Positions 21,662 through 44,226 of a stretch of 53,139 nt of DNA are shown one piece after another. Source of the stretch: a virus (lineage: Duplodnaviria; Caudoviricetes); the IMG/VR virus record IMGVR_UViG_3300027779_000039, positions 1 to 53,139 of that record. One strand, 5' to 3'. The notes under the pieces were generated by a model that worked only from the letters and a program-made list of their open reading frames with translations, searched no databases and was not told the DNA's origin. The first letter of the stretch is position 1. Each line of letters opens with the position of its first letter. The translations under genes and the position numbers were made by a program.

Positions 21662-21667
21662 TCGTAC

Positions 21668-21828: not shown

Positions 21829-22210
21829 GTAGATAAGCGTTTAAACTCAGTGGGTACTGTGTGGCAAAAATGCAACAAAATGATAGTATAATGATAGTTT
21901 TTAGAACGGTTCTAAACTAGGTAGTGTAACATTTTAGCAACTGTGTGTATAATGCAACACTATTTGCGGGGGAATGGGAAATAATAAAAATTATTAATAT
22001 ATTATAAGGGTTTAAACGGTCATACTATTTTAAATCAATTTTAAGAGCCATACAGGACAATTTCTTTAAATGGCTACCCACCTATTCAGAAATCTTAAAT
22101 CAAATTTGTTCTACTTTTGTTCTGATGAAGTTTGTTACATTCTGTTACATTATTTTACTAACTTTTTTTAATTATTTTCTTGACCGTTTAAACTTAAAAT
22201 GCTCTAATCA
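21829..22210. promoter_or_regulatory. Non-coding block A: cluster of host-TF-like boxes ending in the first early promoter
   Basis: ICE 21900-21916; Pho-like 21880-21897; LexA 22108-22122; TGTTACA repeats 22133-22149; 16-bp palindromes; 3x GTTTAAAC. Confidence 0.75.
22180..22208 (+). promoter_or_regulatory. Early sigma70 promoter P1
   Basis: TTGACC-17 bp-TCTAAT with TG extension; spacer contains GTTTAAAC. Confidence 0.6.
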
Positions 22211-22263
22211 AATCAAGGTTAAATCATTAGGGTTTAATCATCAACCAAATAAAGAGAGATTAG

Positions 22264-22623
22264 ATGACTAAATATAACTTAAAAAAAGAAACAGTCTTAA
22301 ACCCAAGTAAAATAAGACTATTAATACATACAGAAAGCCAATTAAAAAATGAACATGTTGGCGGGTGGATAGATGAAATTAAATTCATAAGCCATGAGGA
22401 CAATATATACTCAACTTCTAAAGTGTTCTTAACATATATTAAACCTATAAAAGTAAACGGGGATATGATTGGAAACATTAAATACGATTATGAAATTTCT
22501 CCAAATATGGATAGTGAAAGGGTTAGCTATCCAACTTTTGACGAAGGACACTTCACCTTAATAGAAGAAAAACATACTTTCCATGAAAAGGAAATTGAAG
22601 AACTAAACAACGATAATAAATAA
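22264..22623 (+). CDS. First early gene, hypothetical
   Basis: 119 aa ORF after P1, followed by a hairpin. Confidence 0.65.
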   Translation: MTKYNLKKETVLNPSKIRLLIHTESQLKNEHVGGWIDEIKFISHEDNIYSTSKVFLTYIKPIKVNGDMIGNIKYDYEISPNMDSERVSYPTFDEGHFTLIEEKHTFHEKEIEELNNDNK

Positions 22624-22677
22624 TTATTAATCGGGGAGGGTTTAAACGCTCTCCCCATCAACCACGAGGTAAATACA

Positions 22678-23349
22678 ATGAAAACAACTATTAAAACATA
22701 TGAAACATTAGGCGGTAAATTTGACGCTGTAATCAATGGCAATGAATACCAAATATTTAAGGGAAGTCGTGAAGAATACGGAACAAAAGGCTATAATGAA
22801 TTTCTAGTTCCTTACTTTAAAGAAAAAACGGGCTATGAATTACCGCCTGTTTTTGTATCAATGACTAGTAAATATAGAGAAAACGCTAAAGCATTGGCAG
22901 ACTGTACCACGTATTCAGATAGAATAGAAATATCTTTTAATGCTCATAAAGTTAAAGGTGAGACTGTAGAAGATACCCTTAGATTTTGGGATATTATGGT
23001 ACATGAGGGAATACATGCTTGCGGAATTGGTGGACATAAAAAAGATTTTGCAGACATAGGAAAAAAACTAGGCTTAACGGGTAGCGGTGAAAATAATAAT
23101 ACTTGGACAGCTACAATCTCAACCCCTCAATTAGATGAAACAATATTAAAAACTATTGTAAATAAATTAGGGCTATATCCTCAACATGAATTCAAACAGC
23201 ATTCAAAGAAAAAAGAAGCCGTAAGAAATATTAAAATAGAATGCTCTAATGATTGTGGATATTCTCACCGCTCAAGTATGAAAAATTTTAACATGCTAAC
23301 TAATACCACGTGCGGTGCATGTGGCGAGGGTGAACTAATAACCGCTTAA
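22678..23349 (+). CDS. SprT-like zinc metalloprotease with C-terminal zinc ribbon
   Basis: HEGIH (HExxH) then GHKKDF; CSNDC...CGAC; GAGGT RBS. Confidence 0.75.
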   Translation: MKTTIKTYETLGGKFDAVINGNEYQIFKGSREEYGTKGYNEFLVPYFKEKTGYELPPVFVSMTSKYRENAKALADCTTYSDRIEISFNAHKVKGETVEDTLRFWDIMVHEGIHACGIGGHKKDFADIGKKLGLTGSGENNNTWTATISTPQLDETILKTIVNKLGLYPQHEFKQHSKKKEAVRNIKIECSNDCGYSHRSSMKNFNMLTNTTCGACGEGELITA

Positions 23350-23363
23350 ATTAAATCAACAAG

Positions 23364-23391
23364 GGGGTAGTTTAAACGCTACCCCTATTTT
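23364..23391 (+). terminator. Hairpin/terminator with GTTTAAAC at its apex
   Basis: GGGGTAG-TTTAAACG-CTACCCC-TATTTT. Confidence 0.55.
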
Positions 23392-23409
23392 AAAATAAGG
23401 ATTAATACA

Positions 23410-23613
23410 ATGAAAACAATACAATTAAAATATAAAGAAAGTTATGGTAATAAAAGATTTTACCCTGACTGTGACTATTCACAAAACCTTTTACAATTTG
23501 TAAGCTATAATAAAAAATGTTTTACACTTGAGGAGTACCAAGTTCTAAAAGGTTGCCTAGGTTTTGATGTAATAATTAATAATGATATAGAGGAGGGTTT
23601 AAACGGTGAGTAA
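23410..23613 (+). CDS. Early hypothetical protein
   Basis: 67 aa; KxSYGNxRFYP motif; AAGGA RBS. Confidence 0.7.
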   Translation: MKTIQLKYKESYGNKRFYPDCDYSQNLLQFVSYNKKCFTLEEYQVLKGCLGFDVIINNDIEEGLNGE

Positions 23614-23704
23614 CACAACGACAGAAGCAACGACAACACAAAAAATAATTTGTATAATGTCCTTAATCTTTTCAATAATTTATTTTTTATTTTTAAGATA
23701 GGTA

Positions 23705-23733
23705 TTGACAACAACGAATTAAAAAATTAATAT
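23705..23733 (+). promoter_or_regulatory. Early sigma70 promoter P2
   Basis: TTGACA-17 bp-TAATAT preceded by an A/T tract. Confidence 0.6.
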
Positions 23734-23759
23734 AAACTAATAACAACGAGGTAAATAAA

Positions 23760-24146
23760 ATGACTAAAATAAAAACAATAAGAGATAATAGCGGTACTGA
23801 TTACGACGGTACTATTGATGAGCCGTTTAGACAACGAAGGGTATTTGAACCGAAAAATAAAATAAGATTTCTTGGGACGACTAAAACATGGCGGGATAAG
23901 ATAAACGGTCAGACGTATTTTTCAACTAACGTTGAAGACATTGAGCGAGATGTTAATTACCTTTTCCCTATTACCAACGGCTATGGTGACCAATCAGAGT
24001 ATAACGTCAAGAGGGCGTTAGAGATTGACGACAGCGAGATAAGATTTATTAAAATTCCTAATTGTAAAAAGTCAGAAGTTAAAGAACACGGACAAGGACA
24101 AAAGGAAAATTACTTTTCCGACTTAGGATATTACTACCAAGATTAA
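23760..24146 (+). CDS. Early hypothetical protein
   Basis: 128 aa; WRDKINGxTYFS...YGDQ motif; GAGGT RBS. Confidence 0.7.
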   Translation: MTKIKTIRDNSGTDYDGTIDEPFRQRRVFEPKNKIRFLGTTKTWRDKINGQTYFSTNVEDIERDVNYLFPITNGYGDQSEYNVKRALEIDDSEIRFIKIPNCKKSEVKEHGQGQKENYFSDLGYYYQD

Positions 24147-24177
24147 ACAGGTAAGCGTTTAAACAGTTACCTCCCCC

Positions 24178-24217
24178 TCCCCTCTAGTGTTATGGTTGGC
24201 ACTAGGGGGGTTTTTTT
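24178..24217 (+). terminator. Rho-independent terminator
   Basis: CCCCTCTAGTG...CACTAGGGGGG followed by T7. Confidence 0.85.
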
Positions 24218-24219
24218 GT

Positions 24220-24870
24220 GCCTAAAATTCTAGGCGTTTAAACGGACAGACTACCTCATTAAATCTTAGGCGTTTAAACGGGCAGATTATGACAGTAATA
24301 ATGATAGTATCGTGATAGTTTTTGTTCTCCTTTTGTTCTATGTATATATCAGAGAGTTTAAACGAGGTGTGTATAAGTGTTGTATTTATACCACGTTGTA
24401 TTTATGCAACAGAAATTAAGTGTTGTATTTATATCACGTTGTAAATATATCACGTTGTATTTATGCAACACAGATAGATTAGAATAGTTCTAAAGTATAG
24501 TTGCGAATGATTCTTAGAATAGTTCTAAAGTATAGATTAGAATAATTCTAAAGTAGATAAGCGTTTAAACGTTCTGTTACAATCTGTTACAATAATTTAT
24601 TAAAGTAGTTATTTTAGGGGTTTACAGGTTTTAACGGTCATAGAGCGTCATACAGACGATTTAAGCCTTTTGGCTACGCTAGTATCTAAAAATCCTAAAT
24701 CAAATTTGTTCTCTCTTTGTTCTCTTTTTTCCCTATATACATTATATATATAAAAAAACATTTTTTACTGAGCGTTTAAACGACTGATAAAGTTTGTTAC
24801 ATTGTGTTACAATTCTTTACCGAAAATAATTTATTTTTTTGTTGACGGGTTTATTTAAAAATGCAAAAAT
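24220..24870. promoter_or_regulatory. Non-coding block B: dense tandem array of host-TF-like boxes ending in early promoter P3
   Basis: 5x GTTTAAAC, Pho-like triplet, 2x LexA, 5x 16-bp palindrome, 3x ICE, Fur-like, 2x TGTTACA pairs, TTGACG at 24842. Confidence 0.8.
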
Positions 24871-24917
24871 ATAAACACAGTCAATAATGATTGCAAATTT
24901 TTAGAGGTAAAAATAAA

Positions 24918-25184
24918 ATGATTAAAATATATGAACATGATAAAAAAGTATTTAATATGAGAAAAGAAATAAACATAAATAAATATAAAGCTGAAGAAGG
25001 CGAGGTAAAAGAGTATCAAGAATTTTTTGTAGAACTTGACGCAAAAGAGATACAGACACTTTGTCAGTTAATAGGTTTAACAATGAACAAAGGAATAGAG
25101 TTGGAAAACTTATACAAAAAATTATCAGACTTTAATAATCATACTAATCAAGAAGATTGTAGGCTTGAGTTATACACAGGCTAA
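24918..25184 (+). CDS. Early hypothetical protein
   Basis: GAGGT RBS before MIKIYE (downstream of the track start). Confidence 0.65.
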   Translation: MIKIYEHDKKVFNMRKEININKYKAEEGEVKEYQEFFVELDAKEIQTLCQLIGLTMNKGIELENLYKKLSDFNNHTNQEDCRLELYTG

Positions 25185-25210
25185 CTGTTTAAACGAGGAG
25201 GAGAAATAAA

Positions 25211-25465
25211 ATGTTTATAATAAATCAAACTATGGGTAAAACAATCTCATATAGAAATTGGGGAATAACAACCACAATTCGTAAAGGTAAAAAATACTGG
25301 ATAATTGTGGAGGATTGTTTCGGTCAGTATGAAGAATATTGGCAATTAATTGACACATTAAAACAAGCTAAAAATTTAATAGATTTTTATGAAGAAAAAA
25401 AGAAACTTAATGCTGATGGTTATGAAGAAGAGGAAGTTTTAGAGTTAGACTGGTTGGTGGAATAA
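25211..25465 (+). CDS. Early hypothetical protein
   Basis: 84 aa; GAGGAG RBS. Confidence 0.65.
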   Translation: MFIINQTMGKTISYRNWGITTTIRKGKKYWIIVEDCFGQYEEYWQLIDTLKQAKNLIDFYEEKKKLNADGYEEEEVLELDWLVE

Positions 25466-25466
25466 A

Positions 25467-25892
25467 ATGTTAAAATCTAAAAAATTAAAATTTAAAAAAT
25501 TACCATATGAAGCAAGTTATAAAACTTTGTTAAAAAGATTTCCTGAAATTAATATTGACCAAGATGATGATTTGGGTGATGAAACTTTTCACAAAGCCAT
25601 GAATGGTGCAAAGCCTTATTGGGTTGATATAAATGGACATTTTTATGAAAGATACGGTTTGTGTTGGGATAATGATTGTCCTGTGGCAGGATATTCACAT
25701 ATTGTATGGGGTAGTGATAATAGAGATAGTCATGTCCAAATTTGTGCAAAGTTTATATATTTAATTACAGAACATTTTAAAGATTGTCATTTTATTACAC
25801 CAAGAGACATTGTTGATTGGGGTGTAGCCCATAAGCCTATAAGTGATGAAGAAAGATATTGGACAGATTATTACGAAAATATTGGAAAGTAG
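25467..25892 (+). CDS. Early hypothetical protein
   Basis: 141 aa, tiled. Confidence 0.65.
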   Translation: MLKSKKLKFKKLPYEASYKTLLKRFPEINIDQDDDLGDETFHKAMNGAKPYWVDINGHFYERYGLCWDNDCPVAGYSHIVWGSDNRDSHVQICAKFIYLITEHFKDCHFITPRDIVDWGVAHKPISDEERYWTDYYENIGK

Positions 25893-25915
25893 TTTAAACA
25901 ACGAGGAGAAATAAA

Positions 25916-26284
25916 ATGAAAAGTTTAATAGAAACAATACTACAAACAGCAGTAGATAAGGGCTATGAGTATGCTCTAATAGAGCCATACGACAGAACAA
26001 CAGAACTTAAAAGAACTAATGATGTATCGTTAGGTTTTGCAAATGCAAAAAATAAATGTCAAGGCATACATAATTATGACGAGATTATTATAGAGTTTTG
26101 GCACAAGGAAGAACACATGGGCAATCTTTATTGGACTAATGGGAACGATGACGCAGAACAAGTTTCTGATTACCATTGTAGATTAGATGACGAAGATAAT
26201 TTAGGTCTTGACACTATAATAAAACAATGGGAAAAAGACTTATTAAAAATAACACAACCCAATAATTCTGAAGCATGGAACTAA
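25916..26284 (+). CDS. Early hypothetical protein
   Basis: 122 aa; GAGGAG RBS. Confidence 0.7.
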   Translation: MKSLIETILQTAVDKGYEYALIEPYDRTTELKRTNDVSLGFANAKNKCQGIHNYDEIIIEFWHKEEHMGNLYWTNGNDDAEQVSDYHCRLDDEDNLGLDTIIKQWEKDLLKITQPNNSEAWN

Positions 26285-26307
26285 GGGTTTAAACGAGGAA
26301 AAGAATA

Positions 26308-26559
26308 ATGAGAAAGGCTAAATTTATAGAACTACAATATACAACACACGCTAGTTTAGACTTAGGGGAGGAGGGTATAAACCCTGATGACATTAAATCT
26401 ACATTCTTTAAGTGGGGTATGGCAGACATAGAACTTAAAGACGGGACTAAGCACACTATACATCTTAATCACCATGAGGTAGACTGTAAGTACCACGAGA
26501 AGGGGGGTGTCTATGATGATGATTACGAAAAAATTGAAGTGGATTGGTTTGAAGAGTAA
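26308..26559 (+). CDS. Early acidic hypothetical protein
   Basis: 83 aa; GAGGA RBS. Confidence 0.7.
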   Translation: MRKAKFIELQYTTHASLDLGEEGINPDDIKSTFFKWGMADIELKDGTKHTIHLNHHEVDCKYHEKGGVYDDDYEKIEVDWFEE

Positions 26560-26582
26560 GAGTTTAAACGAGGAGAAGGATA

Positions 26583-26732
26583 ATGGATAAAGAGTGGCAG
26601 ACATTTATAGAAGAAGTCTATGAGATAGCTTTTGGAGACAACGCCTTTAACAGAGGATTTGATTCAGAAGAAGTCGTAACTAAACTAAAAGAATTTTCAG
26701 ACAACGCACACAAATGGGAGGAGAACGTTTAA
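26583..26732 (+). CDS. 49-aa early protein (not in ORF track)
   Basis: MDKEWQTFIEEVYEIAFGDNA...; GAGGAG RBS; stop lies inside a GTTTAAAC. Confidence 0.65.
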   Translation: MDKEWQTFIEEVYEIAFGDNAFNRGFDSEEVVTKLKEFSDNAHKWEENV

Positions 26733-26749
26733 ACGATATGAGTAAAGTA

Positions 26750-26803
26750 TGTTACATGGTGTTACAAAACTTTACTTGCATTATACTAATACTAATATAA
26801 AGT
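26750..26803 (+). promoter_or_regulatory. Promoter with upstream TGTTACA-N3-TGTTACA repeat
   Basis: Repeat 26750-26766; TTGCAT-16 bp-TAAAGT. Confidence 0.45.
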
Positions 26804-26826
26804 CAAATTAACAACGGAGAAATAAA

Positions 26827-27156
26827 ATGAATATATTTAAAAAACTATTTAGTAAGGAAGCAGACTTTAGTGGAGAAGGTTATTCTGAGCCTAGAGATAA
26901 GTATAGACTAGGTAGACAAGCAGTTAAGGTCTATAACTATATGCACAACAACGGGTGGAAGAGTTTAAACGCCATAGCTAAAGCTACTGGAGAACCTTCA
27001 CCATCTATATCAGCACAGCTTAGAAACTTTAGAAAGCCTAGCTTTCAACCTGTAGACGCTATCTATGAAGTAGAGAAGAGATATGTACCTAAAGGGGTAT
27101 GGGAATATAAGTTGATAGTAGTGCCTAATAAAACTATGTTTAAGAAGGTTATATAA
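26827..27156 (+). CDS. Winged helix-turn-helix DNA-binding protein
   Basis: KVYNYMxxxxWKSLxAIAxxTGxPxPSISAQLRNFRK helix pattern, then beta wing (VEKR..GVWEYKL). Confidence 0.7.
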   Translation: MNIFKKLFSKEADFSGEGYSEPRDKYRLGRQAVKVYNYMHNNGWKSLNAIAKATGEPSPSISAQLRNFRKPSFQPVDAIYEVEKRYVPKGVWEYKLIVVPNKTMFKKVI

Positions 27157-27447
27157 GGAGTTAGGAAAGAATTAATTTGGTTGGGAAAGGCGGTGAGAGT
27201 CCGTGGTGTAACCCTTAAACAAAGGAGAAAACCCATTAAAAGTATTCCCCAAGAGATTACCTATCAATGCCAAGTTATAAAAAATTATAGTACCCATTGT
27301 CTTAGATACATTATTTCGTTAAGTTGAGGGACATTGTCTTCAATGCAGAGAGGATACAGAGGCTGAGGTTGAGACTCGTATAATGGTGGGCTAAGTTAGT
27401 AGTTAAAACAGTTGCATGCCTAGACTACAAGCTATAAAATAAATAAC
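27157..27447 (+). ncRNA. Candidate structured non-coding RNA
   Basis: About 290-nt gap in a gene-dense arm; T-loop-like hairpin GCGG-TGAGAGT-CCGT and several long-range stems. Confidence 0.4.
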
Positions 27448-27470
27448 GTTTAAACGCATAGGAGAATAAA

Positions 27471-27629
27471 ATGCAATTAATTAAACCAAATACAAGATTT
27501 TATACAAAGAGTACGCCTAGATGGTTAAGAGAATTATGGGGGTATCATTCACACGATAGTAAGCCCGTTACAATGCCTAAGTATAAGTTTATGGAGAAAT
27601 ACCTTGACAGAGAAGAAGACACCAGATAA
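27471..27629 (+). CDS. 52-aa early protein (not in ORF track)
   Basis: AGGAG RBS; MQLIKPNTRFY... Confidence 0.6.
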   Translation: MQLIKPNTRFYTKSTPRWLRELWGYHSHDSKPVTMPKYKFMEKYLDREEDTR

Positions 27630-27735
27630 GCCTAGAGTAGTAAGAGAGTTGCAAGGAACTTACACAAGAGTAAAAGAAGATAAGACTAAGTACAATAGAA
27701 AACGTTTAAACAATGAGGAGAAAGATGATGAGTAA
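27604..27735 (+). CDS. 43-aa peptide with DKTKYNRK motif (not in ORF track)
   Basis: TTG start after GGAG; MTEKKTPDKPRVVRELQGTYTRVKEDKTKYNRKRL... Confidence 0.45.
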   Translation: MTEKKTPDKPRVVRELQGTYTRVKEDKTKYNRKRLNNEEKDDE

Positions 27736-27880
27736 AGAAAAATTAACAATGGGAGAACTACTAGACAGGCTAGACGCAGAGTTTTATGACGTAGATTTAA
27801 CAACGCATGACAGTCCTACAAAAGGAACAGTAGCAGTAGTACATTTTTATGAGGATAAACTTGATGAGGAGGAAGAATAA
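27725..27880 (+). CDS. 51-aa acidic early protein (not in ORF track)
   Basis: GAGGAG RBS; MMSKEKLTMGELLDRLD... Confidence 0.6.
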   Translation: MMSKEKLTMGELLDRLDAEFYDVDLTTHDSPTKGTVAVVHFYEDKLDEEEE

Positions 27881-28059
27881 TGGCACAGTTTAGTATAAGT
27901 TTTAGTTTAACAAGAGACAATGACTTAAAAAGTGATGATGAGTCGTGGTTTGATAAAGAACATATATCTAATGAAATTAAATCATGGTTAGAGGATTTAG
28001 ATTTTAAGGTTGAGGCAATAGAAATAAAGGATAAAAATGAAGTACGTTTATATTATTAG
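27880..28059 (+). CDS. 59-aa acidic early protein (not in ORF track)
   Basis: TAATG coupling; MAQFSISFSLTRD... Confidence 0.6.
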   Translation: MAQFSISFSLTRDNDLKSDDESWFDKEHISNEIKSWLEDLDFKVEAIEIKDKNEVRLYY

Positions 28060-28099
28060 AGGATTTAGATTTTAAGGTTGAGGCAATAGAAATAAAGGA
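27988..28099 (+). repeat. Perfect 44-bp direct repeat (27988-28031 and 28056-28099)
   Basis: TTAGAGGATTTAGATTTTAAGGTTGAGGCAATAGAAATAAAGGA twice. Confidence 0.9.
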
Positions 28100-28189
28100 G
28101 AAAGATGATGAGTAATTGGCAGATATTTGAATTATCAATAGGCATAGTATGTATTGCTATATTGTGGAACATATAAAAGGAGAAGAATA

Positions 28190-28357
28190 ATGAACGCCAA
28201 CGATTTAAGTAGTGCTTTGTGCGATATGTATGACGTTAAACGTGCCTTGAGAACGGAAGTTCTGTTAGCACCCAAAGATAATGAAGGTACTGAAACTACC
28301 ATTGGTGAATGTATTGATGACGTTATTGAATTTCTTGAAACTTTGGAGGGGATATAA
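28190..28357 (+). CDS. Small hypothetical protein
   Basis: AAGGAG RBS before MNANDL. Confidence 0.6.
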   Translation: MNANDLSSALCDMYDVKRALRTEVLLAPKDNEGTETTIGECIDDVIEFLETLEGI

Positions 28358-28551
28358 TGGACATAGTATTAAATGAAGATTACTGGGATTGTGAATGCTT
28401 ATCAAATTACATTCATAGTAAAAAAAAATTAGAGTGTAGTAAATGTAATTCTTTAGCAGATGAACAACCTGATAGCCGACAAGAGGAGGTAAAATATTAC
28501 AAACCCATGACTTTAAAAGAAAGAAACTACAGAAAGAAACATAATTTATAG
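28357..28551 (+). CDS. Small Cys-rich (zinc ribbon-like) protein
   Basis: YWDCEC..NYIH..CSKC..QPDSR motif. Confidence 0.7.
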   Translation: MDIVLNEDYWDCECLSNYIHSKKKLECSKCNSLADEQPDSRQEEVKYYKPMTLKERNYRKKHNL

Positions 28552-28561
28552 GAGAAGTATA

Positions 28562-28714
28562 ATGGCTAAAAAACAGATACAAGGAAAGAATAGAAAGAAG
28601 ACTACTAAAGCTATGTCTCATACGGGAGGCAACAGTAGACCATTAAAAGATATATACTTTGATGAGGTATCACACAAATGGTTTAAACGCCCTATAAAAA
28701 TAGAGGAGGCATAA
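28562..28714 (+). CDS. 50-aa basic protein (not in ORF track)
   Basis: AGGAG RBS; MAKKQIQGKNRKK... Confidence 0.6.
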   Translation: MAKKQIQGKNRKKTTKAMSHTGGNSRPLKDIYFDEVSHKWFKRPIKIEEA

Positions 28715-28715
28715 G

Positions 28716-28913
28716 ATGAGTACATACAGAGACATAATAAGAAAGATACTATACTTTGAAGAACTAGGGACATTGAGCCTAGACCAAGAGATAACAGAAG
28801 AAAGTTTAAACGACCTAAGAGAAGGTATGATACATTTCGCACCTAACAACGTGCCTTACAATGATGACAGGCAGATGAACATAGACGATTACCTAGATAA
28901 AAAAGGAACATAA
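28716..28913 (+). CDS. Hypothetical protein
   Basis: 65 aa; GAGGAGG RBS. Confidence 0.65.
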   Translation: MSTYRDIIRKILYFEELGTLSLDQEITEESLNDLREGMIHFAPNNVPYNDDRQMNIDDYLDKKGT

Positions 28914-28914
28914 C

Positions 28915-29208
28915 ATGGACAAGAAAGCAATACTAATGGCAATAGCCAGTAAAGACGATATAGAGCATATAACAGACGCTATAATGAAGTTTGTAGATAA
29001 GACTTCAGCAGAGGTAGGAGTAGATAGAGAAGACGTTGCTACAAGTTCTCTAGTAGCTTTACTATTATACTATGTAAAGAACTCTTCAGAAGATAAGGCA
29101 GTAGCCGTAGGTAATTTAATGAGTTTATTGAGTAGTGTGTTTATAATAACTTCTACTGCTACTAATTGGGTAGAAGTACAGGAAGAACCTAGTGGGGGTA
29201 TTAACTAG
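28915..29208 (+). CDS. Hypothetical protein
   Basis: 97 aa; AAGGA RBS. Confidence 0.65.
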   Translation: MDKKAILMAIASKDDIEHITDAIMKFVDKTSAEVGVDREDVATSSLVALLLYYVKNSSEDKAVAVGNLMSLLSSVFIITSTATNWVEVQEEPSGGIN

Positions 29209-29291
29209 GTTATATATAGTGTAGCCCCCCACGGGAGATGCGTGTAGCATATAACCTAATTTTAATGTTGTCAAATTATAAGGAGATAAAA

Positions 29292-29483
29292 ATGGCAGAT
29301 ATAAATATACAGACAGAAGAAATAGTAAATGAAGTTTTAGACGAAGCAAGAGATACCATTATCCAAAGGGGAGGTCAGGAGTTGGAGTGGTCATACCATG
29401 CGGACACAGACTTAAAAAAGATTGTTGTAGTGTTTGCTACTAACAAAGAAGATGACGAAGAACTATTAACGAAAGGAATGTGA
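29292..29483 (+). CDS. Small acidic protein
   Basis: AAGGAG RBS before MADINIQ. Confidence 0.65.
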   Translation: MADINIQTEEIVNEVLDEARDTIIQRGGQELEWSYHADTDLKKIVVVFATNKEDDEELLTKGM

Positions 29484-29484
29484 T

Positions 29485-35810: not shown

Positions 35811-35811
35811 C

Positions 35812-37025: not shown

Positions 37026-37139
37026 TAGTCTTTTTTAGGTCAGCGTTAGGTGTAATCATACTTAACACTTTCTTTAATTTATTAATAGTTTATAGTGACA
37101 CAAATGAAAATATCTTTGTGTTCGGGAGAGAAAAACTGA

Positions 37140-37385
37140 ATGAAGAAGCTTACAGCATCGAAGTTTGATGATGTGAATTATCCACAACATTATAATGAAG
37201 GAGGCATAGAAGCTATAGACGCAATAAAAGCTTCTATGTCATCCTTAGAATTTAAGGGGTACTTAAAAGGCAATGCCCTAAAGTATATGTGGAGATATAC
37301 TTATAAAGATAAGCCTGTAGAAGATTTAAGGAAAGCTAAATGGTATTTAGAAAAGTTGATAGAGTCTAATGAAAACACTAGCTAG
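37140..37385 (+). CDS. DUF3310 (SaV / T7 gp1.7-like) protein
   Basis: VNxPxHY..GIEAID..GYLKGNALKYxWR..K..EDLRKAxWY. Confidence 0.9.
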   Translation: MKKLTASKFDDVNYPQHYNEGGIEAIDAIKASMSSLEFKGYLKGNALKYMWRYTYKDKPVEDLRKAKWYLEKLIESNENTS

Positions 37386-37548
37386 AATAATCATTGACAT
37401 AGAAGTTGACCCAGAAGTATACGTCATGCCTGTAGACAACGACATTGAAGAAGAGATGTCTGATATTATTATTAACACTTTTTACGAACTAGAAGGAATA
37501 GATATTGCAGATGTCACCACAACGCAAAAAATACAACGGAAGAAGTAA
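37369..37548 (+). CDS. 59-aa acidic protein (not in ORF track)
   Basis: MKTLARIIIDIEVDPEVYVMPVD...; fills the gap between neighbours. Confidence 0.6.
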   Translation: MKTLARIIIDIEVDPEVYVMPVDNDIEEEMSDIIINTFYELEGIDIADVTTTQKIQRKK

Positions 37549-37711
37549 TGTTGCTCCCCTTAGAATACAATACGAAGAAGGGCAGAGAGCATTTTACAAT
37601 GGTAAGCTAAGGAATCCTTACCCTAGTTATCACATGAGACATAAGGAATGGGAGCGAGGATTTAACCTTGCATATTTTAAAAACAAAAGTAAATTAAGAA
37701 GGCAACGATAA
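37511..37711 (+). CDS. Small basic protein, Rmf/CrpP-like motif
   Basis: YEEGxxAFxxG..NPY......EWERGF. Confidence 0.55.
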   Translation: MSPQRKKYNGRSNVAPLRIQYEEGQRAFYNGKLRNPYPSYHMRHKEWERGFNLAYFKNKSKLRRQR

Positions 37712-39672
37712 TGGCTACATACGACTTAACTAAACAAGTTTCTAATACAATAGAACTACCCACAGACTACCAAAGTTTTATTCATGTTTCTAGGTACGCT
37801 AGATGGATAGACGAAGATAACCGAAGAGAATCCTGGAACGAGACAGTTACTAGATATTTTGATTATTTAACTAAACGTTTAAAGGAACAAAATAAATATA
37901 CATTAGAGATAGGTTTACGAAAAGAATTACAAGATGCTGTCCTTAACCTAGAGATAATGCCTTCTATGAGAGCCTTGATGACTTCTGGTGTAGCACTAGA
38001 TAGATGTAATGTAGCAGGATATAACTGTTCTTATCTTCCTGTAGACAGCGTTAGGTCTTTTGATGAGTGCCTTTACATACTTATGTGTGGCACAGGTGTT
38101 GGTTTTTCAGTAGAAAGAAAGTATACAAAACAATTACCTACAATTAATGAATCCCTTGAAGACAGCGAGACTACTGTAGTTGTAGGAGATAGCAAGGCAG
38201 GTTGGGCTAAAGGCTATAAAGAATTAATACATCTACTATACTCTGGTCAGATACCTAGTTGGGATTTATCTAAGCTAAGACCTGCAGGAGCTAGGCTTAA
38301 AACATTTGGTGGAAGATCAAGTGGTCCAGACCCTTTGGATGATTTGTTTAGATTTACTGTAGGCATATTTAAAAATGCAGTAGGTAGACAATTAAAGTCT
38401 ATTGAGTGTCACGACCTTATGTGTAAGATAGGCTCTGTAGTAGTAGTAGGTGGAGTAAGACGTTCTGCACTTATTAGTCTATCTGATTTACAAGATCAAG
38501 AGATGGCGTTAGCTAAATCAGGTGAATGGTGGAGCAACGAAGGTCAAAGAGCATTGGCTAATAACTCCGTTTGCTACAAAGAAAAACCTCCTATAGGTAT
38601 CTTTATGAGAGAATGGCTTACATTGTATAATTCTAAATCAGGTGAGCGAGGCATATACAATAGACAATCTGCCGTAGAAAAGTCATTAGAGAATGGTAGA
38701 CGAGATTCAGAACACGACTTTGGTACTAACCCTTGTAGTGAAATTATACTAAGACCTTATCAATTTTGTAATCTTACTGAGGTAGTAGTTAGATCAGATG
38801 ACACTATGGCTACTCTAATTAAAAAAGTAGAGCTTTCTAGTATACTAGGAACATTCCAATCTACTTTAACTGATTTTAAATACCTTAGAAAAATATGGCG
38901 AGACAACACAGAAGAAGAAAGGTTGTTAGGAGTCTCATTAACAGGTATCATGGATTCAAAATTACTCAATGGAGCAAACGACCCTCATTTAGAAACAAGG
39001 TTAAAAGACTTAAAAAAGATAGCAGTACAAACTAATAAAGAATATGCAGAGCGTTTAAACATACAGCAGTCTACTGCAATAACATGTGTCAAGCCTTCTG
39101 GTACGGTTTCTCAATTAGTTGATTCAGCATCAGGTATACATGCAAGACATTCCCCTTATTACATTAGGACTGTTAGAGGAGATAAGAAAGATCCTTTAAC
39201 TAGGTTTATGATTGAGAAAGGAGTGCCTGCAGAAGATGATATAACACAACCAGAAAACACTACAGTCTTTAGTTTTCCTGTGCAATCACCTGATAAAGCA
39301 GTTACCCGTGACGATACCTCTGCCTTAGAGCAGTTAGATTTATGGCTACACTACCAAAAGTTTTGGTGTGAGCATAAACCTTCTGTTACTATTACAGTAA
39401 AGGAAGACGAGTGGCTAGACGTGGGAGCGTGGGTGTATACTAATTTTGACAATGTTGCAGGAATATCTTTCTTGCCTCACTCAGACCATACATATAAACA
39501 AGCACCCTATCAAGATTGTTCTAAAAAAGAGTACTTAGAATTATTAAAAAAGATGCCTAAAAAACTTGACTGGAAAGATTTAATAGATTATGAAGTAGAA
39601 GACAGTACAAGGGGTGGACAAGAATTAGCTTGCTCTGCAGACTCTTGTGAAATTGTAGATATAGGAGTTTAA
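37711..39672 (+). CDS. nrdJ: Class II adenosylcobalamin-dependent ribonucleotide reductase (monomeric type)
   Basis: MPSMRAL, YNCSY, GTGVGFS, GGVRRSA, TNPCSEI, CNLTE, KPSGT, C-terminal ACxxxxCE; no beta subunit gene. Confidence 0.92.
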   Translation: MATYDLTKQVSNTIELPTDYQSFIHVSRYARWIDEDNRRESWNETVTRYFDYLTKRLKEQNKYTLEIGLRKELQDAVLNLEIMPSMRALMTSGVALDRCNVAGYNCSYLPVDSVRSFDECLYILMCGTGVGFSVERKYTKQLPTINESLEDSETTVVVGDSKAGWAKGYKELIHLLYSGQIPSWDLSKLRPAGARLKTFGGRSSGPDPLDDLFRFTVGIFKNAVGRQLKSIECHDLMCKIGSVVVVGGVRRSALISLSDLQDQEMALAKSGEWWSNEGQRALANNSVCYKEKPPIGIFMREWLTLYNSKSGERGIYNRQSAVEKSLENGRRDSEHDFGTNPCSEIILRPYQFCNLTEVVVRSDDTMATLIKKVELSSILGTFQSTLTDFKYLRKIWRDNTEEERLLGVSLTGIMDSKLLNGANDPHLETRLKDLKKIAVQTNKEYAERLNIQQSTAITCVKPSGTVSQLVDSASGIHARHSPYYIRTVRGDKKDPLTRFMIEKGVPAEDDITQPENTTVFSFPVQSPDKAVTRDDTSALEQLDLWLHYQKFWCEHKPSVTITVKEDEWLDVGAWVYTNFDNVAGISFLPHSDHTYKQAPYQDCSKKEYLELLKKMPKKLDWKDLIDYEVEDSTRGGQELACSADSCEIVDIGV

Positions 39673-39673
39673 T

Positions 39674-39916
39674 ATGACTAAAAAACGTGCAAGAACAGAT
39701 GATGGAAAATTTATTGGTGATGATCCTTCTACACCTGAGAATGAAGCATTTACAGATATACAGCCTGATGTGCCTCAGAACTACGTAGTTGACTTAGAGT
39801 TACTTAATGAAATAATTAATATCTTAGGGCAGTTAAATTACAAAGCGGTGTTTCAAACTATGGAAAAACTTAGAAAACTTCCTGCAGTTAATCTTACCTC
39901 AGAAGAAGATAAATAA
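39674..39916 (+). CDS. Hypothetical protein
   Basis: RARxxxGKFIGDDPSTPENEA motif; AGGAG RBS. Confidence 0.7.
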   Translation: MTKKRARTDDGKFIGDDPSTPENEAFTDIQPDVPQNYVVDLELLNEIINILGQLNYKAVFQTMEKLRKLPAVNLTSEEDK

Positions 39917-40377
39917 TGCTTAGTTTACTAGGTTCTTTACTAGGCTTTGGTAGTAGCTTTATGCCAAATGTTTTAGGTTTCTTTGAAAAGAAACAAGCTA
40001 ACAAACAAGAGTTGTTAATGCTAGAAGCTAAAGCCAAGTATGCCTCAGAGCTTAGTAAACTAAAATTACAAGAGATAGATGCTCAGGCAGACATAGAAGA
40101 AGCCAAAGGTATATACGCACATGCAGAAGCCTTAGCTAAATCTAATCAATCTAAATTTATAGGTGCTTTACAGGCTTCTGTTAGACCTGTAATTACTTAT
40201 GCTTTCTTTATGCTGTTTGCTTTTGTAAAAGGTGCGTATGTAATTATAGCCGTACAAGGCGGTGAAGATTTCTTAAAGGCAATACTAACAGCATGGGATG
40301 ACGAGACAATGGCATTATTTGCGGCTGTCATGGCATTTTGGTTTGGTAATCGTGCAATCAGCAAGTGGAGAAAATAA
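39916..40377 (+). CDS. Putative holin (3TM/GTA-holin-like)
   Basis: Hydrophobic N-terminus, coiled coil, SVRPVITY..TM..FWFGNR motif. Confidence 0.65.
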   Translation: MLSLLGSLLGFGSSFMPNVLGFFEKKQANKQELLMLEAKAKYASELSKLKLQEIDAQADIEEAKGIYAHAEALAKSNQSKFIGALQASVRPVITYAFFMLFAFVKGAYVIIAVQGGEDFLKAILTAWDDETMALFAAVMAFWFGNRAISKWRK

Positions 40378-41066
40378 TGGTAGACATTAGACCACCTGTA
40401 GAATTTAAAGAAATGGGAGAAGGGCATAGTATGCTTATGCCTTTCGGACCACACATAGTGTATTCAAGAATGCCAGAAAAAGTTATTAAATCTTTGAATG
40501 CATACCATGATGCAAAAATACAACAAAAGAAAGATAAGGCACTAGACCATTCTAAACAGTTAGTAGGCAAGGTTACTCAAGAGTTCTTAATAGATGACGA
40601 ACAGATAGGCAGGAATGCAGATTTTTTTAATAGTGCATTTGGAGCGTATCACCAGTTTTATCTACAGAGACAGCATCAAAAATTAAAAGAAGGTGCTAGG
40701 ATAGGTATACAATATCACTCTGCATGGCTTGTAAAACAATACGCAGGTGAATTTAATCCTGCACATATACATACCGAATGTCAGCTATCTTGTGTAGGCT
40801 ATCTAAAAGTCCCTGACTTAAAAAAAGAAGATGAAGAAGACCCTAAAAAACATTATCCTTGCAGTGGTAACATAGAACTATTTCACGAAAGCTCTAACTA
40901 TTACCATGTAGGTAATATAAGAATACGACCTGCTGTAGGTGACTTTATTATATTTCCTTCTTATCTTACGCACACAGTATACCCTTTTAAAGCAGACGAA
41001 GAAAGAAGATCATTTAGTATGAATGTATCTGTAAAAGTAGATTTAGGAGAAGATAAAGATGAATGA
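40377..41066 (+). CDS. 2OG-Fe(II) oxygenase (TIGR02466-like)
   Basis: W...GEFNPAHIH..LSCVGYL..IIFPSYLxHxVYP..RRSFS. Confidence 0.85.
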   Translation: MVDIRPPVEFKEMGEGHSMLMPFGPHIVYSRMPEKVIKSLNAYHDAKIQQKKDKALDHSKQLVGKVTQEFLIDDEQIGRNADFFNSAFGAYHQFYLQRQHQKLKEGARIGIQYHSAWLVKQYAGEFNPAHIHTECQLSCVGYLKVPDLKKEDEEDPKKHYPCSGNIELFHESSNYYHVGNIRIRPAVGDFIIFPSYLTHTVYPFKADEERRSFSMNVSVKVDLGEDKDE

Positions 41067-41331
41067 AGAAGAACTTAAAACAGCAATGATTAAGACACCT
41101 CCCGCACCTGTACAAGCACAAAAGAAATCCTGGTACAATGATGCTGAAGGTTTTGACAAGTGGAGAGTGTTTCCACGTTTATTAATAAGTCTGTATGGAT
41201 TAATGTTTTACAAATCAGCTATGTGGTTTATGACATTACCAGACCCTACTAATTCTCAATCAGCTTTTGTGTCTGTTATTGTAGGTGCAGGTGCAGCTTG
41301 GTTTGGTCTTTATGTAGGAAATAAGAAATAA
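41059..41331 (+). CDS. Two-TM membrane protein (holin-like)
   Basis: DKWRVFPRLL..WFMxLPDPT..VSVIVGAGAAWFGLY. Confidence 0.65.
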   Translation: MNEEELKTAMIKTPPAPVQAQKKSWYNDAEGFDKWRVFPRLLISLYGLMFYKSAMWFMTLPDPTNSQSAFVSVIVGAGAAWFGLYVGNKK

Positions 41332-41513
41332 TGGACAAAGAAACAGTAAATAAAATAATTGGGTCTAGTACTCCTGTAGTTAAATTAAAAAAAGAAATAA
41401 AACAAATTATTCCATACCTCTATAAGTATAGAGATGTGCAACAAGGATCTAAATGTAGAGAAGTTATTACTGCAAGGATACATAAAATAGAAGATTTACT
41501 ACGAGACGTTTAA
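41331..41513 (+). CDS. Hypothetical protein, last gene of the plus arm
   Basis: 60 aa; TAATG coupling. Confidence 0.55.
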   Translation: MDKETVNKIIGSSTPVVKLKKEIKQIIPYLYKYRDVQQGSKCREVITARIHKIEDLLRDV

Positions 41514-41842
41514 ACACCTACCTATACGCATTAAAAAAGGTCATGTAAGCCCTATATGCTATATAAGCTTAATACAAGCTCATACAGACAAATTAAGGGT
41601 TTTATGACCTTTCCTATTTAACTATATATAAATCTTTCTTAGAACTCATCTATGAGAACTTTTTATTAAAAAACCTATTGAATTTTCTATATGACTCGTA
41701 AGAGGCACACTATTAAAGTAATTATGGAACTACTCCCTATAATATACGGCATCGACTATCTCCTGTGCTATAAACACAGTTATACTCAATTTTAAATATT
41801 AATCAAATCAATTAATGTAATGTATACTATTTACGTTATGAA
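41514..41842. other. Convergent intergenic region between the two arms
   Basis: About 330 nt, AT-rich; inverted repeat AAAGGTCAT/ATGACCTTT; third CATACAGAC copy. Confidence 0.6.
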
Positions 41843-42109
41843 TTAATTAGCTAAAGGGTTGTCGTTATTACCCACATTGTCTACTCGGTTTTCTGTTCTG
41901 TCTAATCTTTTTTCAAGATTTCCTACTCGTGTAGATAGAGTAGCAATAGATTCTTGTAGAGGTGCAATATTTACAGCCTTAATCTTCTTCTTCTCTATAT
42001 TGTCTAATCGTAAATTAAATTGACCCCACGTATAGAAGCCTCCTCCTATCGCAGTGATAACGCCTATGATAGTTATGTACTGCTGTAGCTTTCCTATTAT
42101 GTTTTTCAT
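41843..42109 (-). CDS. Membrane-anchored coiled-coil protein
   Basis: N-terminal TM (ITIIGVITAIGGGFY), heptad region, NPL terminus. Confidence 0.7.
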   Translation of the reverse strand: MKNIIGKLQQYITIIGVITAIGGGFYTWGQFNLRLDNIEKKKIKAVNIAPLQESIATLSTRVGNLEKRLDRTENRVDNVGNNDNPLAN

Positions 42110-42111
42110 GT

Positions 42112-44226
42112 TTATCTCCTTTCTAAAAATATCCCCATTGGCTGAGAATCCATTATAGTATATAGAGTGTTTAAACTGCTATTGACTAAATCTCCATATG
42201 CTTCGCCATTGTCCCTCAACATAGCACTTGCATATATTTGTGTAGGCTGATACCAGTTTGTTTGGTCTGGTATATTAGCCTGTGAATAATCACTAAAATT
42301 AGGTACGTAATTCATGTAGGCAATTAAATTAGATTGTCCTTGAGAATCATACTCACCTGATTGTTCTTGTTGAACCTGTGACGCTTCCTGTTGTACTCTT
42401 ATATTATCACTAACTATTTCTTCAGCTATTTGTTCTGCTTCAGAAGAAGTAACCATAGTACTTGTAACACTTTCAATCTGATTGTCCATTGTTGTTATTT
42501 GAACTTCTGCCATTACCATTGATGGAGTATTATCCATAGTAGGCATAGGAAGTATATCAATAGATTGTAATACAGTATTAGTCTGTACTTGAGATGCAGA
42601 TATTTGTGCTGATATGCTAGGTGAGTTAGATACAGATACTGCTCCCATACTGCCTGATGATGTCACTACATTACTACTTCCTGTAGATACCGCACCAGAG
42701 TTATTGTTCTGTGAAGTTTGAGTACTAGATGATATGCTAGAGTTCACAACATTTGAAGTACTGTTAGTATTAAATGTCACTATGTTTCTTACTGTGTTTC
42801 TTCTTTCTGTTCTTCTAGGTCTATCCTCAGTCCTTTCATCTTCTTCTGCATTCTCTTCATCAAATATTTCTTCTAGTTCTTCTTCTCTTTCTTCTTCAGC
42901 TTCTTCTAGCTCTTCTTCAGCTTCTTCTCTTTCTACTTGTTCTTCACGTTCTTCTACTTGCTCTTCTTGTATCTCTTCTTCTGTATGCTCCTCAAAGTCC
43001 TCAAACTGGTCTTCCCAATTTTCTTGGTCCATCTCATCTTGGAAGTCAAAATGTTCATCCATGTGTTGAGCAAACTCTTCAAACTCATCTTCCGTCATTC
43101 TTATATCTTGTAGATCTTCTATACTAGGCAACTCTATTAAGTCAGGAATAGTTAGTAAAGTATCCCCTTCTAGAGATTCAAAGTCTATAAATATTAAGGT
43201 TTCTTCATCACCGCCCATAGTAAAGTCCCTATCAGCAAATAAATTAAAATTATTAAAGTTATCTTCATGGTCTTCTGTGTCCGTTATATCATACTCAAAA
43301 TAGCTAATGCTAATATTCCCATCATCGTCAGTACCGCCACCATCCCTAATATCAGCACCCGTAAAAAAAACAGATGTTCCTGTATAAGTTTCTTCATCAT
43401 TGAAACCATAAAATTCCTCCTCATTATCATAACCTAACAACATAGCATCAGATACACCTGAGCCACGTAGATACTCTTCGTCTTCAAAACCGTCTTCAAA
43501 TTCGTTGTCTAACTCATATATACTACATAGCTCACTGAAGTCTCCATCTATTAAGCACTCAGAAGAAAGATTACTAAAGGACTCATCTGTTTTGGTTGTA
43601 ACAGACCAGTCTGTAGCTAGTTCGTAGCTAGTGCTACCTGTGTCTACATAGCGTAAATGTGTTAAAGATTGTGTGTTATTGCCTTGCATACCTATTGTTA
43701 TATTATGATTAGATATGTCTATCTTATCGTACCTAAACTCTACAACATTACTTGTTTCATACAAGATAGCCTCAAAAGAATTTAAGTTTCCTGACCTGCT
43801 GTACTCTTGTGCATTGTACCAACCTACTACAAAGTATTGGTCTGTTGCGGAAGTTTCTCCGAAAGTTTGTATGTAGGGGTTTTGAGTGCCTCCAGAGTTA
43901 ATTAAATCAGTCCATAAAGGCATGATTGAAAAGTTAAAACCTGATGCAGGAAGAGTTTCTGACATGTAGTTTCTATAATTATTAACAGAGAAGTTAGAAT
44001 TAAATGTAAGAAAGCCGTTCATAGATATGTTTGCTTGGGTGTAATCGTTACCGTAATGTGTAAAGCTAAAACCTAAGTCTTTCATCCCAGACATCTGATC
44101 GTCTTGAAGGTTTAGAGCAGTGCCTGTGTTTTGGATATTTAAAATTGGATCAGTACCTGTTGTGAATACAGGAGTGTTGGCTTGTGCCGAAATGCTAAAG
44201 AGTAATAAGAATACTAATCTAAGCAT
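42112..44226 (-). CDS. Secreted protein: NIDO-like beta domain, very acidic linker, S/T/Q-rich region
   Basis: Signal peptide ..SAQA; LGFxFxxYGxxY..ISxNGFLTF, PLWTDL, NSFEAILY motifs; poly-Glu tract. Confidence 0.7.
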   Translation of the reverse strand: MLRLVFLLLFSISAQANTPVFTTGTDPILNIQNTGTALNLQDDQMSGMKDLGFSFTHYGNDYTQANISMNGFLTFNSNFSVNNYRNYMSETLPASGFNFSIMPLWTDLINSGGTQNPYIQTFGETSATDQYFVVGWYNAQEYSRSGNLNSFEAILYETSNVVEFRYDKIDISNHNITIGMQGNNTQSLTHLRYVDTGSTSYELATDWSVTTKTDESFSNLSSECLIDGDFSELCSIYELDNEFEDGFEDEEYLRGSGVSDAMLLGYDNEEEFYGFNDEETYTGTSVFFTGADIRDGGGTDDDGNISISYFEYDITDTEDHEDNFNNFNLFADRDFTMGGDEETLIFIDFESLEGDTLLTIPDLIELPSIEDLQDIRMTEDEFEEFAQHMDEHFDFQDEMDQENWEDQFEDFEEHTEEEIQEEQVEEREEQVEREEAEEELEEAEEEREEELEEIFDEENAEEDERTEDRPRRTERRNTVRNIVTFNTNSTSNVVNSSISSSTQTSQNNNSGAVSTGSSNVVTSSGSMGAVSVSNSPSISAQISASQVQTNTVLQSIDILPMPTMDNTPSMVMAEVQITTMDNQIESVTSTMVTSSEAEQIAEEIVSDNIRVQQEASQVQQEQSGEYDSQGQSNLIAYMNYVPNFSDYSQANIPDQTNWYQPTQIYASAMLRDNGEAYGDLVNSSLNTLYTIMDSQPMGIFLERR

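Follow-up and report, generated by a model that had tools for sequence, protein, structure and literature searches.

Arrays of dispersed short sites that are read by a protein of the element carrying them are already known in kind. The stoperators of Cluster A mycobacteriophages such as L5 are asymmetric 13-mers that are oriented with transcription, lie in both genome arms and are bound by the immunity repressor of the temperate phage, while the global operators of IncP-1 plasmids, the KorA site GTTTAGCTAAAC and the KorB sites, are read by helix-turn-helix repressors. Here we describe an array of the exact 8-base palindrome GTTTAAAC in the viral DNA record IMGVR_UViG_3300027779_000039, analysed over its whole length of 53,139 bases (the window), and the association of this octamer with a gene for a SprT-like zinc metalloprotease. 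The pairing with a Spartan-type protease, the use of the same word across phyla and a site gradient anchored on the gene are new. No description of a GTTTAAAC array, or of a link between this word and SprT-like genes, was found in searches of full-text literature, in which the octamer came up in phage contexts for cloning or unrelated uses only.

Like the stoperators, the window array consists of several dozen short, lineage-specific sites that are scattered mainly over short intergenic gaps and that a phage protein would read. It differs in that GTTTAAAC is a symmetric 8-mer, is concentrated in one arm (35/38 copies) of an apparently lytic phage and is shared across unrelated phages. The IncP-1 operators are likewise short dispersed palindromes on a mobile element with regulators of its own, and the outer bases of the KorA site resemble the octamer. 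The IncP-1 sites are, however, longer and far fewer, and no KorA or KorB homologue was found in the window.

On the protein side, plasmid R388 encodes ArdC, which combines a DNA-binding domain with a metalloprotease domain and has Spartan and IrrE as its closest structural homologues (PMC7213743, available part). According to the same source, ArdC is required in the recipient cell against type I restriction, and the establishment module in which it was tested is located in the leading region of R388. The window protein would be similar in joining DNA binding to a gluzincin HExxH protease, in each case encoded on mobile-element DNA that is established first. The two proteins differ in that ArdC has an N-terminal single-strand-DNA-binding domain, whereas the window protein has a C-terminal zinc ribbon. 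The available part of PMC7213743 mentions no specific-site array for ArdC, and no ArdC-type domain was found by Pfam in the window protein or its family. SPRTN (Spartan; PDB entries 6mdx/6mdw) is described, in the portion of its literature considered here, as a DNA-dependent protease of DNA-protein crosslinks. It shares with the window protein an HExxH zinc protease with an adjacent zinc-binding subdomain, and differs in that the window protein is a small early-gene product with only a weak match to the SPRTN fold. We know of no sequence-specific site array for SPRTN.

Exact matching gave a complete count of 38 GTTTAAAC copies in the window, all at the positions listed in the initial annotation and nowhere else. 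Dinucleotide shuffles held a mean of 1.60 copies (sd 1.34, maximum 6), and 0/100 reached 38. When all 8-mers were ranked against an order-2 Markov model, GTTTAAAC was the most over-represented word of the window (76 both-strand counts vs 3.53 expected, 21.5-fold), and the runners-up were its own extensions TTTAAACG/CGTTTAAA. The enrichment described in the initial annotation is confirmed, and the described split of 20, 13 and 3 copies along the arm was correct by recount from the position list. One-mismatch variants stood at background; only TTTTAAAC reached at least 4 copies (4 in the window, 1 in the arm). The 35 clustered copies all lie within 21839-41515, in the early/replication arm on the + strand. 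Enrichment also survived the codon-preserving control that had been proposed with the initial annotation: the + arm genes contain 15 copies, compared with a mean of 1.98 (sd 1.17, maximum 6) in 1000 synonymous-codon shuffles within each gene. The - arm genes contain 3 vs 1.73 after the same shuffling, so that chance can account for the three copies that lie elsewhere than in the arm. An artefact of composition or codon use is ruled out by the Markov model and the codon shuffles, and the data support the view that the copies constitute a selected array of recognition sites and not a by-product of either.

The window is the entire IMG/VR record, which is labelled 'linear' and 94% complete and whose right end cuts a gene. 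A + strand gene block spans 22264-41513, and the other genes, those for terminase, portal, capsid, tail and lysis functions among them, are read from the - strand; the junction of the two divergently transcribed arms lies at 21.7-22.3 kb. The DNA polymerase shares 38-42% identity with its counterparts in Roseobacter CRP phages, Pelagibacter phage HTVC033P and Puniceispirillum phage HMO-2011, and HTVC033P has the same two-arm layout. From these polymerase relatives and this layout we take the window to be a nearly whole HMO-2011-type marine podovirus. Its ribonucleotide reductase gene and 35% GC content fit the uncultured HMO-2011-type subgroup X in the available part of PMC9038755, in which subgroups IV-X are reported to be without lysogeny genes; the terms promoter, palindrom and terminal repeat do not occur in that text, supplements aside. 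Open reading frames (ORFs) of the window were scanned with Pfam (50) and PHROGs (20), 58 in all and 12 by both, some small ORFs being left out. Among them neither GntR nor any other recognisable DNA-binding family was detected, no repressor or integrase family was found, and no site-specific nuclease, restriction or methylase gene was recognised. A Cas4-type exonuclease gene is present at 35812-36666.

The octamer is not peculiar to this phage. Searching IMG/VR with a 14-base form of the motif retrieved unrelated high-density contigs and yielded 120 loci for comparison. GTTTAAAC is enriched regionally in unrelated phages of 32-67% GC: contigs G006, G007, G008, G009 and G010 hold 49, 33, 25, 32 and 23 copies, respectively, and locus L138, of 46% GC, has 39 in 9.3 kb. 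In all of these the copies are regional and not genome-wide; in G009 (61% GC), 19/32 fall in the first 10 kb. L138 carries actinophage-like genes (WhiB, sigma factor, amidoligase, glutamine amidotransferase and glycosyltransferase). The phage group of L138, G006 and G007 (about 45% GC) has the highest density, ~4 copies per kb over several kb, and also encodes a dNMP kinase; gene sets of this kind occur in phages with hypermodified DNA bases.

The motif-rich regions compared share a single gene family. In an all-against-all comparison of eight motif-rich regions, the SprT-like family was the only cluster found in 8/8, and every other cluster spanned two. Among the 120 loci of the 14-base scan, a SprT-like gene occurred in 12/29 motif-rich and 1/91 motif-poor loci (Fisher p = 5.5e-8), and in 7/9 loci retrieved with profile A3, which was built on motif-rich gene copies, the top 8-mer was GTTTAAAC. 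The link was also found in 80 viral loci chosen solely by the family gene with a search profile from a 12-row alignment, the patterns being taken from database representatives and not chosen by motif. GTTTAAAC was the top 8-mer in 49/80 of these loci, which are the nearest relatives of the motif-rich copies and include some near-duplicate rows, compared with 1/80 terminase-selected controls (p = 2.4e-18). The one control locus in which the word ranked first itself contains a SprT-like gene. At least three copies were present in 58 of the gene-selected loci and none in 8; the set spans 32-72% GC, and its motif-rich members 33-67%.

In these viral loci the GTTTAAAC gradient is anchored on the SprT-like gene and runs along its direction of transcription. 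Density is 0.03-0.12 per kb at -8 to -2 kb from the gene start, 0.50 per kb in the last kb before it and, from the gene start on, 1.65, 1.33, 1.08, 0.60, 0.50, 0.36, 0.41, 0.32 and 0.37 in successive kb. The initial annotation had described a polar gradient that decays from a putative genome end and had suggested looking for a similar one in related phages. The gradient is indeed confined to the early arm and is reproduced, with the same octamer, across the 80 viral loci; its anchor is the gene and not the contig end. The gene itself carries the word in 47/74 viral loci, at conserved F-K codons and at a V-stop, and these copies are kept even at 51-58% GC, where those codons are disfavoured.

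The association extends to bacterial genomes, where 80 loci contained 186 GTTTAAAC copies vs 4.2 expected and 59/80 had a copy in or at the SprT-like gene. These loci have a median GC of 63%; many are from Sphingomonadales and many lie on small or plasmid-labelled contigs. In a series of them (L354-L415, ~63-66% GC), one copy occupies a fixed internal site about 297 nt into the matched part, at F-K after GH, and 1-2 further copies frequently lie within a few kb. Among cultured phages, a copy lies upstream of the SprT-like gene or its operon by 27 nt in Escherichia phage vB_EcoM_ECO1230-10 (L333), about 390 nt in Dinoroseobacter phage vB_DshS-R5C (L334) and 81 nt in Pseudanabaena phage Pan1 (L335). 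R5C and Pan1 hold 3 and 5 copies, respectively, in about 18-20 kb vs about 0.01 expected. Conversely, the HMO-2011-type contigs G002-G004 gave no SprT-like match and have 0-1 GTTTAAAC; they hold the helicase gene and therefore cover at least part of the early/replication region. The clade of SprT-like loci L287 and L317 has ATTTAAAT as its top 8-mer instead of GTTTAAAC (4 sites each vs about 0.1 expected), which may be a specificity variant.

The window SprT-like gene sits between two hairpin-borne GTTTAAAC copies, and its product belongs to PHROG 6361, of unknown function. The homologue in G008 matches the Pfam SprT-like family PF10263 (34.6 bits, cut-off 25.6), as do 44/60 aligned family members at E <= 0.01. 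Residues H109, E110, H113, H120, C189 and C212 are invariant in the 60 aligned members; the HExxH active-site helix and the third metal ligand are present, the window protein reading VHEGIHA...GGH, and the protease domain precedes the zinc ribbon. The AlphaFold2 model has a pLDDT of 86.5. The family numbers 3209 cluster representatives at E <= 0.001, and to our knowledge no bacterial SprT-like protein has been subjected to a functional test.

Comparison with relatives indicates that sites are gained and lost rapidly. GTTTAAAC is still the top 8-mer in relatives at 70-100% polymerase identity and is not the top 8-mer in those at ~42% identity or in HTVC033P, which has no copy and no analogous word in the 50,000 of 53,075 bases examined. 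Within the DNA polymerase gene, the word occurs at different codons in different lineages, and site presence goes with amino-acid changes (KDLEDI to SSLNDI, QGLDKA to KGLNEA). As read from these alignments, the shifting codons and the accompanying amino-acid changes indicate repeated gain under selection for the DNA word itself. Of 10 window sites compared, the majority are retained in motif-rich relatives at ~84% nucleotide identity, and L006 and L008-L010 have one-mismatch remnants there, which would be as expected after loss of constraint. No other palindrome was found to replace GTTTAAAC in the motif-poor relatives. The distant HMO-2011-type relatives L022-L025 show a mild excess of ATTTAAAT.

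The arm that bears the array also varies between strains. Between the window and L003/L005, some mosaic joints lie at the motif: homology begins precisely at 27448 in one case and immediately past the copies at 26287 and 31224 in others. L003 also has an extra ~180-nt segment between two GTTTAAAC copies where the window has one. Assembled contigs of four public runs all end at about 21783-21790, the depth of related strains falls across the early arm (21.8-28 kb), and in several contigs foreign inserts link early-arm points that are far apart. The contig breaks and the drop in depth therefore mark the early arm as hypervariable between strains and the structural arm as conserved; the breaks near 21790 fit the onset of this variation and say nothing of physical ends.

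Of the 35 arm copies, 15 fall inside genes and the other 20 lie between genes or at a gene boundary. The intragenic copies are read as xGT-TTA-AAC (11) or xxG-TTT-AAA-C (4), both of which avoid an internal TAA, and in two cases the octamer supplies the stop codon of a gene. Twelve of the 35 copies end 13-32 nt 5' of a start codon, wedged between the preceding stop and the Shine-Dalgarno sequence, a few within the 3'-terminal part of the gene before, and nine lie in the two long non-coding stretches, 21662-22263 and 24147-24917, where other repeat families occur as well. The flank preference mentioned in the initial annotation is real, moderate in size and carried by the intergenic copies. Across the 35 arm sites, A stands at -3 in 25, G at -2 in 19, C at -1 in 16 and G at +1 in 22; the intergenic copies share TARGC-GTTTAAAC-G, and the 10 copies deep within long genes have no flank preference. 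Nothing beyond the symmetric 8-base core is shared by every copy. Hairpin apices hold 3/38 copies in the window and 4/32 in G009, vs ~2% of random positions, and a flanking stem of at least 5 pairs was present at 4-12% of copies in 8/10 sets and at none in the other two.

Coordinates of the GTTTAAAC array, the SprT-like gene and associated features of the window
Feature	Position	Strand	Remarks
GTTTAAAC array, 35 copies	21839..41515	none	Starts: 21839, 22010, 22186, 22640, 23370, 23597, 24157, 24236, 24272, 24356, 24563, 24774, 25187, 25892, 26287, 26562, 26727, 26963, 27448, 27704, 28681, 28804, 29937, 30154, 30484, 31224, 31767, 32480, 32784, 33509, 35504, 35955, 36419, 39053, 41508
SprT-like zinc metalloprotease, 223 aa, HEGIH ... 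GH, C-terminal four-cysteine zinc ribbon	22678..23349	+	Second early-arm gene
Hairpin with GTTTAAAC at apex (GGGGAGG-GTTTAAAC-GCTCTCCCC)	22633..22656	+	30 nt upstream of the SprT-like start codon
Hairpin with GTTTAAAC in loop	23364..23385	+	Directly after the SprT-like stop; listed as a - strand terminator-like site
Divergent intergenic region between the arms	21662..22263	none	3 GTTTAAAC: 21839, 22010, 22186
Predicted leftward sigma-70-like promoter, TTGACA-17-TACAAT	21696-21668	-	Consensus match only
Predicted rightward sigma-70-like promoter, TTGACC-17-TCTAAT	22176-22204	+	Read by eye, consensus match only; GTTTAAAC 22186 in spacer
Non-coding stretch, 770 nt, with 6 GTTTAAAC and other repeat families	24147..24917	none	
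Isolated GTTTAAAC	13774..13781	none	In the - strand structural arm; flanks off the arm consensus; consistent with chance
Isolated GTTTAAAC	42169..42176	none	In the first gene of the right-hand - strand block; flanks off the arm consensus; probably chance
Isolated GTTTAAAC	47136..47143	none	In the 1236-aa - strand gene; flanks off the arm consensus; probably chance

Several simpler roles for the octamer were considered and rejected. As a promoter for a phage RNA polymerase it lacks a fixed -10 element after the motif (by eye), and no such polymerase gene was found; sigma-70-like promoters are present, and the count of promoter-like sequences was not above shuffles (71 vs 76.8). A -1 frameshift site (T_TTA_AAC) fits 11/15 intragenic copies, but 20 copies are intergenic and those in SprT-like genes use another register. 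A hairpin-loop element does not accord with the small fraction of copies that have a flanking stem. Repeated intergenic elements at cassette junctions of hyperplastic early regions are also a feature of the PeSL elements of T4-type phages. These are, however, units of a ~60-nt stem-loop plus promoter without an exact shared octamer, whereas few GTTTAAAC copies lie in hairpins and 15/35 arm copies are inside genes. The octamer is identical to the site of the type II restriction enzymes PmeI/MssI, with likewise exact recognition. Phages normally avoid restriction palindromes; by contrast, GTTTAAAC is enriched, and no cognate endonuclease or methyltransferase family was found in the scanned ORFs.

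Our leading explanation, which we hold tentatively and with slightly less than even confidence, is that GTTTAAAC is a positively selected cis site whose array serves as a mark of the early arm and has a functional link to the SprT-like protein. According to this proposal, the protein would be made among the first early products and would recognise GTTTAAAC on double-stranded DNA, probably via its zinc ribbon; the symmetry of the core points to a dimer as the reader of duplex DNA. It would thereby become concentrated on its own gene and the DNA just downstream, where the tethered protease could attack whatever proteins occupy the incoming early region, for example restriction or defence complexes of the host, silencers or roadblocks. 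The SprT-like protein would thus possibly be a DNA-tethered establishment or anti-defence protease, with a role akin to that of plasmid ArdC, and the number and density of sites would matter while their exact position would not. By this analogy, the suggestion in the initial annotation that the sites protect incoming DNA gains a precedent. A bolder version holds that the Spartan-like protease is itself a sequence-specific reader of GTTTAAAC arrays that its element has placed in the DNA expressed or entering first, own gene included, and strips or destroys host proteins there in a cross-phylum establishment or anti-defence system; we regard this version as doubtful.

Several observations count against the proposed coupling. 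The window protein has no Pfam match even at E <= 1, and its best PDB fold matches, human SPRTN 6mdx/6mdw, are weak (E 0.026, prob 0.72, TM 0.26-0.31). A protein cannot act before it is made, so the earliest DNA to enter is beyond the protection of this one. Of 90 family members placed on a quick tree, 51 were motif-rich and 24 had some copies, leaving 15 with no GTTTAAAC within -0.3 to +6 kb. The site-less members are mostly high-GC actinophage-type and YuA-type and include Arthrobacter phage Elezi and the distant cultured homologues Bordetella FP1 and Pseudomonas PSA20, the last two with 0 GTTTAAAC. The loci are also phylogenetically non-independent, with near-identical rows present; kin share labels, and the clustering of motif labels on the tree alone is therefore no evidence of co-evolution. 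The motif-rich locus L014 spans 8 kb upstream of the polymerase without a detectable SprT-like gene, although its contig may end short, and the motif-poor relatives L006, L016 and L018 do not cover the arm start. Finally, a small fast-evolving reader encoded beside the SprT-like gene would escape BLAST.

Such a reader, whether a small phage regulator or a conserved host protein, would coat or block the early arm as an arm-wide transcriptional roadblock or silencer, in the manner of the stoperators or the IncP operators, and the SprT-like gene would merely be a frequent first gene of early modules of this kind. We think this unlikely, though it deserves serious weight. The exact palindromic core is of the kind that a dimeric DNA-binding protein would recognise, some copies are found in a promoter spacer (22186), immediately 5' of -35 boxes in L247 or between stops and Shine-Dalgarno sequences, and free positioning with high turnover is as expected if the number of roadblocks matters. 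However, motif-rich regions of unrelated phages have no second gene in common, and the scanned ORFs include no repressor or integrase. The one candidate found in the window, a winged-helix protein at 26827-27156, was rejected for its few homologues, low-confidence model and poor match to the motif distribution, being undetected in motif-rich L014. It is a basic 109-aa protein (+ strand, pI 9.9) with a predicted helix-helix-helix-strand-strand order typical of winged helices, a model pLDDT of 47 and only 7 close homologues in a collection of 5.8 billion proteins; its gene carries a GTTTAAAC inside the putative recognition region and TGTTACA doublets upstream. A host reader, one of the options raised in the initial annotation, could serve only if it were conserved between Actinobacteria-type and Proteobacteria-type hosts alike. 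Phages and plasmids that range from 32-72% GC and belong to different bacterial phyla show enrichment of this one octamer, which argues against a host-specific reader; a virion protein as reader found no support either. The related suggestion of a host HutC/GntR regulator is not supported: GTTTAAAC fits GT-N-TA-N-AC by inspection, but the 50 ORFs scanned by Pfam gave no GntR match.

Three further explanations were weighed. An RNA element, in which GUUUAAAC in early transcripts would be a processing, stability or translation signal, possibly read by the SprT-like zinc ribbon, is suggested by the copies just 5' of start codons, by the minority at hairpin apices and by intergenic flanks that are asymmetric along transcription (A at -3 and G at -2); a palindrome would also be present in the transcript from either strand. 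We nevertheless judge it improbable: the predicted rightward promoter begins only downstream of the copies at 21839 and 22010, 10 copies deep within long genes are without flank preference, only the symmetric core is common to all copies, a palindrome is needless for RNA recognition and 88-96% of copies are outside hairpins. If the copies were instead recombination linkers or targets of a site-specific nuclease, serving early cassette shuffling or recombination-dependent replication, the breakpoints at 27448, 26287 and 31224, the L003 segment bounded by two copies, the hypervariability of the early arm with contigs breaking near 21790 in four runs, and the encoded Cas4-type exonuclease would all find a place. 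Mosaic joints survive at gene boundaries anyway, however, and selection maintains the copies within the genes for polymerase, helicase and reductase. Evolvability is only weakly selected for, and the window showed no recognisable gene for a site-specific nuclease or methylase; we consider this explanation highly improbable. Least credence of all is given to a DNA-entry signal, that is, a ratchet, a pause or a Chi-like guard against exonucleases acting from the leading end. The polar gradient, highest at the start of the early arm, accords with it, and podovirus early arms commonly enter first. Yet the gradient is anchored on the gene and not on a contig end, GTTTAAAC accompanies the gene on bacterial plasmid-type contigs too, and Chi is an asymmetric, orientation-dependent short word read by RecBCD/AddAB, unlike the symmetric core of GTTTAAAC.

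If the coupling between octamer and protease is functional, the two would form a widespread module that pairs an exact 8-base DNA mark with a DNA-dependent protease and that unrelated phages and plasmids use when establishing in a new cell. This would give bacterial SprT-like proteins, with more than 3000 sequence clusters, a concrete and testable role, would constitute a new anti-defence logic in which an element marks its own DNA so that the protease acts there, and would provide a simple sequence signature for early or leading regions of uncultured phage genomes. On the bolder reading, the protein would be the first sequence-targeted member of the DNA-dependent protease family. Even with another reader, an identical selected octamer across 32% to 72% GC is unusual and calls for explanation. 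Dinoroseobacter phage vB_DshS-R5C and Pseudanabaena phage Pan1 are cultured carriers suited to experiments.

Other repeats accompany the array. In the non-coding stretch at 24147-24917, a strong terminator-like hairpin (24179-24210) precedes 4-5 iterons of ~20 nt (core GTTGTATTTAT) at about 24370-24475, a triple repeat of a 21-nt unit at about 24478-24560, and doublets of TGTTACA and of TTTGTTCT; the stretch is possibly a replication origin and/or a regulatory hub. Direct TGTTACA doublets ~11 bp apart occur at 22128-22150, 24577-24595, 24795-24812 and 26750-26770. Three of them lie shortly downstream of a GTTTAAAC. The second unit of the doublets, TGTTACAAT or TGTTACAAA, resembles an extended -10 element; the doublets may be promoters or operators of another regulator. 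A second palindrome, TTAGCTAA/TAGCTA, is mildly enriched in the window (8 copies vs 2.55 expected) and also in L014 and L015, and resembles the core of the IncP KorA operator. The right arm of Elezi (L250, record 28000-43471) contains its SprT-like gene, a phage sigma factor gene, a promoter-like word, TTAGACTGTTTACAC, repeated upstream of several genes, and nine copies of GTTTACAC/GTGTAAAC vs 0.06 expected; in place of GTTTAAAC, Elezi thus carries a promoter-like word that includes GTTTACAC. Outside the early arm, the window encodes two giant proteins on the - strand, of 1912 aa (49-5787) and 1236 aa (45262-48972), with no PHROG, Pfam or PDB sequence match; their nearest protein-atlas clusters are unnamed viral proteins.

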